UHGV virus genome: UHGV-0291501
Reading direction: 5' to 3' (one strand)
Origin: a virus
DNA: 64,000 bases
The notes beneath the pieces were generated by a model. The model saw only the letters and a list, made by a program, of their open reading frames with translations. It did not search any database and was not told the origin of the DNA. This document shows positions 45,573 to 56,120 of this stretch, one piece after another (positions within the stretch are counted from its first letter, which is position 1; each line of letters begins with the position of its first letter). The position numbers were made by a program, and so were the translations under genes.

Positions 45573-53591
<8,019 letters not shown>

Positions 53592-53592
<1 letters not shown>

Positions 53593-53831
53593 TACATTTT
53601 TCCTGCTCTTCTAAGTTCGTTGTAAGCAATTTCCTCTTTATACGACCTCTGAATCTCAAGAAATTGTCTCAATGATAATAAATCAGAGAATGTCATAGCA
53701 AAGAGTTGGTCAAGTGTTTCTTTACACCCTTCCATACCATAAATAGCAAGCACAAATTTCATCTCGTCTGCTTCTTCATAGGTTGCCTCTACAGCAGCAT
53801 CAGTTAGTGGTGTCTGTAGAGTGTTACCCAT
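53592..53831 (-). CDS. Tail assembly chaperone, -1 frame extension segment (gpT-like)
   Basis: ORF in -1 frame relative to 53834..54232 and open across the overlap; see slippery site. Confidence 0.55.
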
Positions 53832-53833
53832 GT

Positions 53834-54232
53834 TTACTGAGAAGTTAGGCTTTTGAAAATGCTTGCTTCGAAAAAACTTCCGAAGTTTGCCTCCAGCGCA
53901 AATGCTAAGTAATCAATAAACTCACCGTAGTTTGCTTGGAAGTACGTATCAATATTAAGTGGGAAGTCATCAACAGTTGCCCCTTGAAATAACAGGGTAG
54001 CCATTTCTTCAAGGTTAATTTCTTCAATTCTGTCAAAACAAGCTTCAACAAGTTCTTTAAATGGAACCATTGGAGCTTCTTTCTTACCCTTGTCAGTCAG
54101 ACTTGACAGCATCTGTGCAAAAGTTGGAACAACAATTTTACCCAACTTCATAGACATCTTAATACCATCTCTTGCCCCAAGCAGAACGATATTTACTTTC
54201 TTACCATTAATTACTCTAGATTCTGTTTTCAT
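53834..54232 (-). CDS. Tail assembly chaperone (gpG-like)
   Basis: 132-aa ORF between tail tube and tape measure genes; contains slippery heptamer near its 3-prime end. Confidence 0.55.
   Translation of the reverse strand: MKTESRVINGKKVNIVLLGARDGIKMSMKLGKIVVPTFAQMLSSLTDKGKKEAPMVPFKELVEACFDRIEEINLEEMATLLFQGATVDDFPLNIDTYFQANYGEFIDYLAFALEANFGSFFEASIFKSLTSQ
53870..53876 (-). promoter_or_regulatory. Programmed -1 ribosomal frameshift slippery heptamer U_UUU_UUC
   Basis: Minus-strand ttttttc in the 0 frame as agt ttt ttc (S F F); the -1 frame stays open from here through the 53592..53831 ORF. Confidence 0.5.
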
Positions 54233-54261
54233 TGTGATTCCTTAATACTTTTAAAAGAAAC

Positions 54262-54297
54262 AAAAAAGGGGAAGACCTTTTAAAGTCTCCCCCTTAT
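54262..54297 (-). terminator. Rho-independent terminator (bulged stem, U6 tract)
   Basis: Minus-strand RNA GGGGAGAC-UUUAAAAG-GUCUUCCCC then UUUUUUGUUUC; downstream of tail tube gene. Confidence 0.45.
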
Positions 54298-54305
54298 AGG
54301 ATTTA

Positions 54306-54752
54306 TTAAACACTTGACGCTGGAATTGTAGAAGTGTAGTCTAGCTTCTCACAACCAAAAATCCAAGTTTTAGAGTTCTGGTCACGACCAAGTTCAATCT
54401 GCGGTAATTCCTGCAACCAAGCATTAATACCAGTTGCCAGAACAGAGCCTGATGGGTCGTAGATTACGAAGTTAGAAGAGATATCTTCTTCAAGTTCCAT
54501 ATTGTCTTGTTTAGCTTGAATTGCAGAAAGCATCTGGTTAGAGAGAGAAGTCTGCATTAACTCAATCTCAATAGTACCTGTCTTGTCTGCATTTCTTGTC
54601 AGAGCAACTTGACCACCTGCACCAACAACTGGTGTCACAAGTGGTGATGTTCTCTGTAGACGCAAGAATGAATCTGGGGCAAAGCCTTCAATGGCAATAC
54701 CATTCCAGCTACATACAACGTCTTTAGGGGAATATTGCTGATACATAGCCAT
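54306..54752 (-). CDS. Tail tube protein (by position)
   Basis: 148 aa, between sheath-like gene and chaperones; followed by a terminator, consistent with high expression. Confidence 0.5.
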   Translation of the reverse strand: MAMYQQYSPKDVVCSWNGIAIEGFAPDSFLRLQRTSPLVTPVVGAGGQVALTRNADKTGTIEIELMQTSLSNQMLSAIQAKQDNMELEEDISSNFVIYDPSGSVLATGINAWLQELPQIELGRDQNSKTWIFGCEKLDYTSTIPASSV

Positions 54753-54767
54753 TCCAATTTACCTCTA

Positions 54768-56120
54768 TTATTCGTAAGCCACTGTACCTTTCAAGTCAAC
54801 ATCCAAGATAGCCCCTGCTAAGATACCTGCGAAGGTAACGTCTTTCAGGATACGTGCTTTCTTGTCTGCTAAAGCAACTTGAGAGGCTTTAGGAACATTA
54901 ACTGTGTAAGATGACAGGAAGTTTCTGTTGACTGCTCTTTGCAGAGAGGTTTCAATGACTTGACGAATACGAGTAATACCAGTATCATCATAAGTAATCT
55001 TACCACCCTTCTGGTTAATTAGCAAGTCTCTCAGAGAAGTTTTCAGGTCTGATTCTAACCAGTCAACACCACGGATGATATCAATCCATTCCCCACCAGA
55101 AGTAATCCCTCTACGAACCACTGGAACACCACCATCAAGGTCAATAAAGTTACAGTGACGTGCATCTAAAGCAGACTTCTGAATACTTGTCAGAGGTCTC
55201 TGATTAGATGGTTGTAGAGAAGCTGCTACACCAGTTAGCTGAGCATTACCCCAAGCAATCGAACCTGCGTCATATGGAGCACCATAAGCAATGTATGCCA
55301 TCTCTGGATAATCTTCTGCTGCTGTGTGATGCCACAAGCAAACTGTACGAGTGTACATATTCTTAGCAAGCTGTGCTGGAACATCATTTGCACTGGCTAA
55401 TTCTGTGCCTTGCAGTGCTGCTACATCTGAGTTAGCCGTAAAGAAGATTTTCTTGCGAGCCTGAATCTCAGAAGCCATTGCTAAGACAAACTGTTGAGTT
55501 CTGTCTTCTGCTGCAATGAAATACCAGTCAGTAGAATAAGCTTCGATAGCTGCCAGAGCAGTTGATGCTGTATCGGCAGTTGTACTTGCAATGTATACAG
55601 TCTGTGCTGTGGTTGTTACTTTCACAAAGTCATTATCACCAGCTTTGGTAATAATCATTGTGGCAGAGCCATTGCTACCAGTTACATTCACAGAAACCTT
55701 ATCTTTGATTGTTGGGTCAGCTTCAATCTGTGTTTTAAACTGTTGCAACACTACCTCAGCAGTGTCTGAGTCTTGTGCTGTGTACTGGTATGGTTGAGAA
55801 ATTCCACCGCCAGCAGCTACAGTAATTGAGTAGTCTGTACTTTCGGTAACGGCATCAGGAATTGATACAGTGTACTGCATAGCACGTCTACCAATATAAA
55901 GCTGAGTTACTTTAGGAGTCTGACTCCAAAGTTGTTTAGCAGCCTTATATGCAGCAGAGTTTTCATCGAAATCTTCAGCAACTTCAGTTAAGGAAGTGTA
56001 ACCACGGACTCTTTCTTCAAAGTTATCTGTTGAAGCTAAGAATAGTGGCAAACCAAAACCTTCTCTTGTAGTTCCTGCGGTGTTCAATGTAATATCTACA
56101 TTAACAATTGGATTCCACAT
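54768..56120 (-). CDS. Tail sheath protein (by position and size)
   Basis: 450 aa immediately upstream of tube gene; standard sheath-tube-chaperone-tape measure order. Confidence 0.5.
   Translation of the reverse strand: MWNPIVNVDITLNTAGTTREGFGLPLFLASTDNFEERVRGYTSLTEVAEDFDENSAAYKAAKQLWSQTPKVTQLYIGRRAMQYTVSIPDAVTESTDYSITVAAGGGISQPYQYTAQDSDTAEVVLQQFKTQIEADPTIKDKVSVNVTGSNGSATMIITKAGDNDFVKVTTTAQTVYIASTTADTASTALAAIEAYSTDWYFIAAEDRTQQFVLAMASEIQARKKIFFTANSDVAALQGTELASANDVPAQLAKNMYTRTVCLWHHTAAEDYPEMAYIAYGAPYDAGSIAWGNAQLTGVAASLQPSNQRPLTSIQKSALDARHCNFIDLDGGVPVVRRGITSGGEWIDIIRGVDWLESDLKTSLRDLLINQKGGKITYDDTGITRIRQVIETSLQRAVNRNFLSSYTVNVPKASQVALADKKARILKDVTFAGILAGAILDVDLKGTVAYE

Follow-up and report, generated by a model that had tools for sequence, protein, structure and literature searches.

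In phage lambda, a siphovirus, the tail assembly chaperones gpG and gpGT are encoded by a chaperone ORF that has the major tail gene on one side and the tape measure gene on the other, with a -1 shift near its end at the heptamer G_GGA_AAG, which differs from the T_TTT_TTC motif dealt with below. The extra domain of the gpGT fusion binds the tube protein, and the low efficiency of the shift sets a ratio of about 30:1 (Levin et al. 1993; Xu et al. 2004, 2013, 2014; summarised in PMC5009743). A similar arrangement occurs in phage P2, which has a contractile tail and whose small chaperone gene, just upstream of the tape measure gene, gives a longer second product from the same start by means of a -1 extension (gpE and gpE+E', of 91 and 142 aa). 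Frameshifting at the P2 heptamer TTTTTTG has been demonstrated experimentally (Christie et al. 2002; Xu et al. 2004; summarised in PMC3091744), and no downstream hairpin has been reported for this pair (PMC3091744). The T4-like chaperones were also considered as a slippage precedent and were discarded, as separate short and fused genes have been reported for them (PMC10274946).

Heptamers of the X_XXY_YYZ class, to which the site described here also belongs, are found in E. coli dnaX and in the IS3/IS911-type cassettes, together with a 5' Shine-Dalgarno (SD)-like stimulator at 9-14 nt. These systems need a strong 3' hairpin or pseudoknot, and their efficiencies reach 30-50%.

Gene neighbourhood and reading frames

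The locus studied here lies in the window, as we call the whole 64,000-nucleotide stretch of DNA that was analysed (UHGV virus genome UHGV-0291501), whose source is a Felixounavirus, a Felix O1-like myovirus of the Ounavirinae (Andersonviridae). Its 641-base region 53592..54232 shows 99.9% identity with Enterobacteria phage KhF3 and Escherichia phage skuden, and about 98% with Felix O1-type phages. All the genes concerned map to the minus strand, in the order sheath, tube-like protein, 132-aa chaperone ORF, 79-aa ORF, tape measure and Dit-like protein. The sheath gene (54768..56120; PHROG 205, E=1.2e-123) is followed by the gene of a 148-aa tail tube-like virion structural protein (54306..54752; Pfam PF11681 KPP10_Orf10, PHROG 280), directly upstream of the chaperone. 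The chaperone ORF itself (53834..54232) has an SD of its own at the start (AAGGA, duplex dG -6.1) and would give, by standard translation, the 132-aa short form of a tail assembly chaperone (TAC-N, gpG-like), with matches to Pfam PF21822 Phage_TAC_15 (E=1.7e-19, 71 bits against a cutoff of 22, profile positions 1-124 of 127) and to PHROG 1613 (E=2.9e-48). The 79-aa ORF, usually annotated separately (53592..53831), matches PHROG 4963, 'tail assembly chaperone' (E=2.8e-55). Next comes the gene of the 742-aa tape measure protein (51364..53592; Pfam PF20155 TMP_3, PHROG 4036), the ATG of which overlaps the stop shared by the 79-aa ORF and the predicted frameshift product (TAATG at 53592; junction sequence ATGTAATGGCA). 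On the structural side, a PDB sequence search with the chaperone gave no relative (best match E=0.61), and a single-sequence AlphaFold2 model reached a mean pLDDT of 32.6, too low to be usable. No tRNA genes were found in the window.

An in-frame scan of the 132-aa ORF gave a sole slippery heptamer of the X_XXY_YYZ type, T_TTT_TTC (U_UUU_UUC in the RNA), at 53870..53876 of the minus strand, in the phase AG-T TTT TTC and with its TTT as the 13th codon before the stop. The 79-aa ORF begins 2 nt past this stop, in the -1 frame of the chaperone ORF, and this frame is open for 106 codons, beginning 25 codons before the 132-aa ORF stop (12 codons upstream of the heptamer) and extending to 53592; the +1 frame closes about 6 codons on. 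A slip at the heptamer would join residues 1-121 of the 132-aa ORF to a -1 extension, or T-like domain, of 92 codons plus a stop (minus strand, 53592..53870), resulting in a long form (TAC-NC, gpGT-like) of 213 aa with the junction ...GSFF|RSKHFQKP...

An earlier note on this DNA had placed the pair in a tail module and had read it as a gpG/gpGT-type arrangement, with a -1 frame open from the heptamer through the next ORF and a fusion of about 213 aa. All the coordinates and numbers that it gave for the 132-aa ORF, the heptamer and its distance to the stop are right, and translation confirms both the open frame and the size of the fusion. The tail-module assignment is upheld by the location of the pair between the tube and tape measure genes and by the Pfam and PHROG chaperone matches, while gene order, -1 overlap, phased heptamer and conservation in relatives (see below) all agree with a gpG/gpGT-type organization. 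However, since the phage is a myovirus, its closest proven precedent would be P2 E/E+E' rather than G/GT of lambda, which as a siphovirus is unlike the phage described here. The similarities to P2 include the contractile tail, the small chaperone gene just upstream of the tape measure gene, the -1 extension that would give a longer second product from the same start and the absence of a downstream RNA structure. On the other hand, the products differ in size (132 and 213 aa in this phage), the last base of the heptamer is C instead of G, and the frameshift was shown by experiment in P2, whereas in this phage we infer it from the sequence.

Conservation of the heptamer and of the -1 extension

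The heptamer alone is unremarkable, because 65 in-frame XXXYYYZ slippery heptamers occur in about 75 long ORFs of the window (19,377 codons, or about 0.0034 per codon), and the chance of finding some heptamer within the 25-codon zone of open -1 frame is roughly 8%. Only one of the 65, the chaperone site with its 92 codons, is followed by a -1 extension of more than 35 codons. A mere coincidence, in which the heptamer would do nothing else than encode Ser-Phe-Phe and the downstream ORF would be unrelated, could appeal to the fact that F120 and F121 are invariant residues, and that NNT TTT TTY is expected in about 31% of cases for S-F-F under the codon usage of this genome. Such a reading can be weighed against a set of 34 loci, made up of 13 curated ones (the window plus 12 fetched annotated loci) and 21 divergent loci from IMG/VR. 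The fetched loci come from Felixounavirus, Suspvirus, Mooglevirus, a Hafnia phage, Kolesnikvirus (Erwinia), a Yersinia phage, an Alteromonas myovirus and the Vequintavirinae phiTE and FV3, and reach down to about 28% chaperone identity. The IMG/VR scan, carried out with a six-sequence Ounavirinae alignment, resulted in 46 more loci, among which the 21 divergent ones were analysed.

In each of the 34 related loci examined, T_TTT_TT(C/T) occurs in frame, and the -1 frame past it remains open over 83–123 codons. In the curated set, the motif is T_TTT_TTC in 12 of the 13 loci and T_TTT_TTT in the Alteromonas phage, it is located 11-35 codons ahead of the chaperone ORF stop (n=13), and the -1 ORF, present in 13 out of 13, spans 92-123 codons, for predicted fusions of 210-248 aa. 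The curated -1 frames end at or just before the next annotated gene, which is the tape measure in all cases except phiTE. The arrangement is also kept in 21 of the 21 analysed IMG/VR loci, including phages with 57-64% GC at 26-31% identity; five GC-rich representatives were checked, and in four of them about 3.4 kb of sequence contained no T6 run other than that of the heptamer. Against a coincidence, the codon choice is identical in every independent lineage, the GC-rich genomes included, the residue preceding the two phenylalanines varies (Ser, Cys, Asp) yet its codon always ends in T, and the -1 ORF always begins at or before the heptamer and runs to the tape measure gene (in phiTE, to the next annotated gene). 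Because none of the related loci examined has lost the heptamer or the open -1 frame, chance is ruled out as an explanation; the coincidence is effectively refuted by these comparative data, and its probability seems close to nil.

The same conservation can be followed at the nucleotide level. The DNA of the distant Kolesnikvirus matches the query only at positions 346-386, which correspond to the heptamer and about 23 nt downstream, with an identity of 92.7%, and the 19 nt directly 3' of the heptamer (GAAGCAAGCATTTTCAAAA; minus strand, 53851..53869), within the dual-coded overlap, are nearly invariant across the Ounavirinae. Synonymous conservation, taken as the fraction of identical codons at identical amino acids in pairs below 60% protein identity, amounts to 0.82, 1.00 and 0.86 on the three codons of the heptamer, as compared to 0.38 gene-wide, and to 0.65-0.90 on the next five codons (+2..+6), which are dual-coded. 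The conserved F-F dipeptide and the downstream dual coding account for part of the nucleotide conservation.

Regarding the -1 extension, its amino-acid identity to relatives within the Ounavirinae is 89, 80, 49, 51 and 46%, and third-position changes dominate in the -1 frame (21 versus 7 in the comparison with SUSP1, 19 versus 11 with Moogle). Its first eight residues, RSKHFQKP, are conserved from the shift site on, with HTRRFRKP as their counterpart in FV3. As judged from these patterns, the extension is under purifying selection and evolves as a protein.

A different possibility is that of two independent genes, in which the 79-aa ORF would be translated from the ATG at 53831, possibly through re-initiation, and the fusion would be absent. 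Many GenBank/RefSeq records do show two separate CDSs, and in Felixounavirus the ATG is found 2 nt after the stop of the 132-aa ORF, a layout compatible with termination-reinitiation. However, this ATG is not preceded by a Shine-Dalgarno (duplex dG of +0.7, versus -5.1 to -12.6 for 11 neighbouring genes), and the start codon is not conserved, being an ATG elsewhere in Moogle and SUSP1, a GTG in the Hafnia phage and a TTG in the Yersinia phage. The Kolesnikvirus phages phiEa21-4 and Ep030 of Erwinia have no start codon for the second ORF at all, and in the record of phiEa21-4 this stretch was left unannotated. Moreover, the conservation of the -1 peptide begins at the heptamer, 13 codons upstream of the ATG, and synonymous constraint acts on the heptamer itself. 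These comparisons make it unlikely that the 79-aa ORF is expressed on its own, and two separate genes with no fusion would be a very improbable solution; what the data support is that the 79-aa ORF corresponds to the C-terminal part of a frameshift product. The comparative evidence agrees with the proposal of the earlier note that both ORFs form a single frameshifted gene pair, and its central claim of a programmed -1 frameshift finds strong support in the conservation across the 34 loci, the synonymous constraint, the purifying selection on the extension and a 79-aa ORF devoid of an RBS.

Probable mechanism of the shift and candidate stimulators

The chaperone pair is very probably expressed by programmed -1 ribosomal frameshifting, a reading built on comparative sequence data. 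Most ribosomes would reach the stop of the 132-aa ORF and produce the short chaperone, and a minority would pause on U_UUU_UUC with tRNA-Phe on UUU in the P site and on UUC in the A site. Both tRNA-Phe would then re-pair one base back on UUU_UUU, in a tandem -1 slippage, and decoding would resume at CGA in the -1 frame for 92 codons, up to the stop that overlaps the tape-measure start. The outcome would be the 213-aa long form, with residues 1-121 in common with the short one. If the two forms act like lambda gpG/gpGT and P2 E/E+E', the N-terminal part common to both would coat the tape measure protein and the frameshift-only C-terminal T domain would recruit the tube protein, while the frequency of the frameshift would fix the ratio of short to long form. 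In E. coli, U_UU.U_UU.C is one of the heptamers that, even without stimulators, have shift frequencies above 0.10% and that are found in genes less often than expected, and U_UU.Y was ranked among the most shift-prone A-site motifs (Sharma et al., PMC4066793).

A fusion of the same kind could also derive from slippage of the RNA polymerase on the T6 run (A6 in the template), which would give mRNAs with one base fewer or two more. The site is homopolymeric, T6, or T7 in the Alteromonas phage, and the conserved upstream T makes the run longer and is at the same time needed for the heptamer, so that the sequence fits either mechanism. A pattern scan also flags a weak hairpin plus T-run just upstream (minus strand, 53896..53880), although this 'terminator-like' match was rejected as an artefact of the T run. 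On the other hand, in bacteria the runs described as productive for slippage consist of about 9 A or T (PMC5009743), against which 6 is short, the T run keeps the exact X_XXY_YYZ phase in 34 of 34 loci, and ribosomes have been shown by experiment to shift on U_UUU_UUC (PMC4066793). Nor is there a conserved 5' hairpin that could act as a stimulator of slippage, as the alifold of the upstream region in 15 lineages gave only -0.4 kcal/mol. In the light of these data, polymerase slippage looks improbable as the origin of the long form.

As for the stimulation of the ribosomal frameshift, the earlier note had suggested looking for a 3' stem-loop or pseudoknot, and RNA folding of the site and its relatives was negative. 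Downstream windows of 40, 60, 80 and 120 nt were folded. Folds of the 80, 60 and 40 nt immediately 3' of the heptamer gave shuffle MFE z-scores of +0.8, +1.2 and 0.0, the same 3' region in seven relatives ranged from -1.06 to +0.94, and a six-genus alifold consensus 3' of the site was of -1.25 kcal/mol, with essentially nil covariation. No stable stem-loop or pseudoknot was detected 5-9 nt past the heptamer, where the dnaX and IS3-type systems have theirs, and the 19-nt spacer at 53851..53869 forms no stable structure. About 37-95 nt downstream there is a fold of moderate stability (z = -1.84), which was rejected as too distant and not conserved, and a hairpin enclosing the heptamer, CUUCGGAA/UUCGAAG, had a z of 0.04 and was also set aside. 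A second shift site, U_UUC at ATT-TTC (about 53859..53856), was considered as well, and this tetramer is explained by a conserved aromatic residue of the -1 frame (H-F-Q, R-F-R, R-Y-E) rather than by a selected slipperiness. The missing 3' structure is no argument against frameshifting, as in P2, too, no such structure has been reported (PMC3091744). An RNA structure does not seem to be required for the site to work, and the efficiency of the frameshift would probably be low because no 3' stem-loop or pseudoknot is present.

In contrast to dnaX and the IS3-type cassettes, a 3' structure was not found at this site, but a tentative counterpart of their 5' SD-like stimulator could be the GGAGG at 53890..53894 (minus strand), 13 nt 5' of the heptamer, a spacing within the 9-14 nt described for SD-like elements that stimulate -1 shifts (PMC5009743). 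The 53.6 kb of sense-strand gene interior contain GGAGG only 8 times, and among the 15 aligned lineage representatives 11 have either GAGG or GGAGG. The element is not conserved in all lineages, being absent from the Hafnia, Kolesnikvirus, Yersinia and phiTE phages. Furthermore, GGAGG encodes a conserved L-E-A, with about 10% expected from codon choice alone, and the synonymous conservation of the GAG codon within it is only 0.53. As a candidate, this upstream motif may give a modest stimulation. A more specific idea, which we consider doubtful, is that in the branch of E. coli, Salmonella and Citrobacter phages and in several metagenomic lineages the frameshift would be tuned by rRNA pairing of GGAGG, in the manner of the dnaX/IS-type SD stimulators, and not by RNA structure; the invariant 19-nt 3' spacer might contribute to the tuning too. 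If true, a lower chaperone ratio would be expected in the lineages lacking GGAGG (phages of Erwinia, Hafnia and Yersinia, and phiTE), and GGAGG would adjust, in a host-specific way, a recoding site that is conserved among the phages.

Annotation of the chaperone pair in Felix O1-like phages

Felix O1-like phages are widely used in typing, biocontrol and therapy of Salmonella and E. coli, and cell-free systems are now being used to rebuild them. For the engineering of their tails it is important that the gene models are correct.

The frameshift of the chaperone gene in these phages has been predicted before in published work, and some relatives are annotated accordingly. Salmonella phage Mushroom (KP143762), with a DNA identity of 98.1% over the 641 bases, carries a joined CDS over the exactly equivalent interval, and Citrobacter phage Moogle (NC_027293) has a joined two-piece CDS over the equivalent interval, the tail-chaperone frameshift being stated in its genome announcement of 2015 (PMC4319497). 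For 231 Andersonviridae and 159 Vandenendeviridae genomes, a more recent paper of December 2025 described a GTTTTT motif conserved at the 3' end of the short chaperone gene, which its authors read as a conserved -1 frameshift (PMC12846349). The predictions for Mushroom, Moogle and the Andersonviridae concern the same gene, site and predicted product as those of the window, and nothing substantive differs. The literature searches on Felix O1-like phages gave neither an experimental proof of the frameshift (by protein, reporter assay or ribosome profiling) nor results on the other hallmarks of gpG/gpGT-type pairs, namely two products from a single start at a fixed ratio, both of them required for tail assembly and missing from virions. 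An exact look-up of the 213-aa fusion in the protein collection showed it to be absent, which is to be expected because gene callers leave the two frames unjoined and the protein of Mushroom differs by a few residues.

The locus would be one more well-supported example of a long-established rule of tailed phages and raises no new question. A small new angle is offered by the sharp preservation of the T6 heptamer in relatives with 57-64% GC, plus the possible SD-like stimulator. The main value of the analysis is a correction of the annotation, in which two small ORFs would become one recoded gene for a 132-aa and a 213-aa chaperone. Most records, including those of Felix O1, KhF3, skuden, dune and the RefSeq entry of UAB_Phi87, show two separate ORFs, and in some of them the two small ORFs are labelled as 'head closure' or 'tail completion' proteins.

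Sequence context of the slippery heptamer in related loci

The proposed -1 slippery heptamer of the chaperone gene, T_TTT_TTC (53876..53870, minus strand), lies within a stretch of 29 consecutive nucleotides (53895..53867, CTGGAGGCAAACTTCGGAAGTTTTTTCGA) that is identical in five IMG/VR contigs, L043 and L045-L048, and differs by one base in L044. These six contigs form a separate metagenomic lineage, in which the C-terminal half of the chaperone is just ~50% identical to that of the window and the sequence downstream of the 29 nucleotides has diverged completely. The shared stretch includes a GGAGG motif (53890..53894, minus strand). This local identity is the strongest clue that the upstream context of the heptamer may be under selection at the RNA level.

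The same heptamer is kept at the equivalent position in L049-L058, uncultivated IMG/VR relatives of 57-64% GC (for example at L049:1893, L053:1869 and L056:1875). In L053 and L056-L058, an additional in-frame heptamer, A_AAT_TTC, is found four codons upstream, where a slip would also enter the -1 ORF used by T_TTT_TTC. Directly 3′ of the heptamer, L049-L058 carry a G+C-rich stretch, such as GACGGCGCGCGCAGCGGCTCGACGCCGCTCGCGC in L049, which might fold, in contrast to the Felix O1-like site.

Tape measure gene: translational start and an internal heptamer

The stop codon of the predicted 213-aa frameshift product, which is also that of the 79-aa ORF, overlaps the start of the tape measure gene in the sequence TAATG (53594..53590, minus strand), with an AGGA motif 9 nt upstream (duplex dG -5.1). 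Because of the stop/start overlap, the arrangement suggests that translation of the tape measure is coupled to any ribosomes finishing the -1 frame.

An in-frame heptamer, A_AAA_AAG, also lies inside the tape measure ORF, around codon 95 (53305..53299, minus strand). According to the Atkins review (PMC5009743), this heptamer is far more shift-prone in E. coli than the other A- or U-rich heptamers tested. The -1 frame that follows it in the tape measure gene is shut after 5 codons, and any slippage would therefore yield a truncated product only; the heptamer is most likely incidental.

Terminator upstream of the chaperone gene

The 73-nt gap between the stop of the tube-like gene (54306) and the chaperone start (54232) holds a strong intrinsic terminator (54295..54256, minus strand), in which a 13-bp stem (AAGGGGGAGACTT / AAGGTCTTCCCCTT) closes a 4-nt loop and is followed by a TTTTTGTTTCT tail. 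This same element is annotated as a Rho-independent terminator in the KhF3 record. The terminator probably attenuates transcription, keeping the output of chaperone and tape measure below that of sheath and tube.

Labels in public records

Both ORFs of the frameshift pair are misnamed in SUT_S920, VpaE1_ev78 and VpaE1_ev035, either as 'head closure protein' or as 'Hc1 head closure / Tc1 tail completion'. 'Campylobacter phage A132' and similarly named records are ~98.5% identical to Felixounavirus at the chaperone locus, and the Staphylococcus hyicus entry WP_252560994.1 corresponds to the 132-aa chaperone; contamination or mislabelling appears to lie behind these entries.
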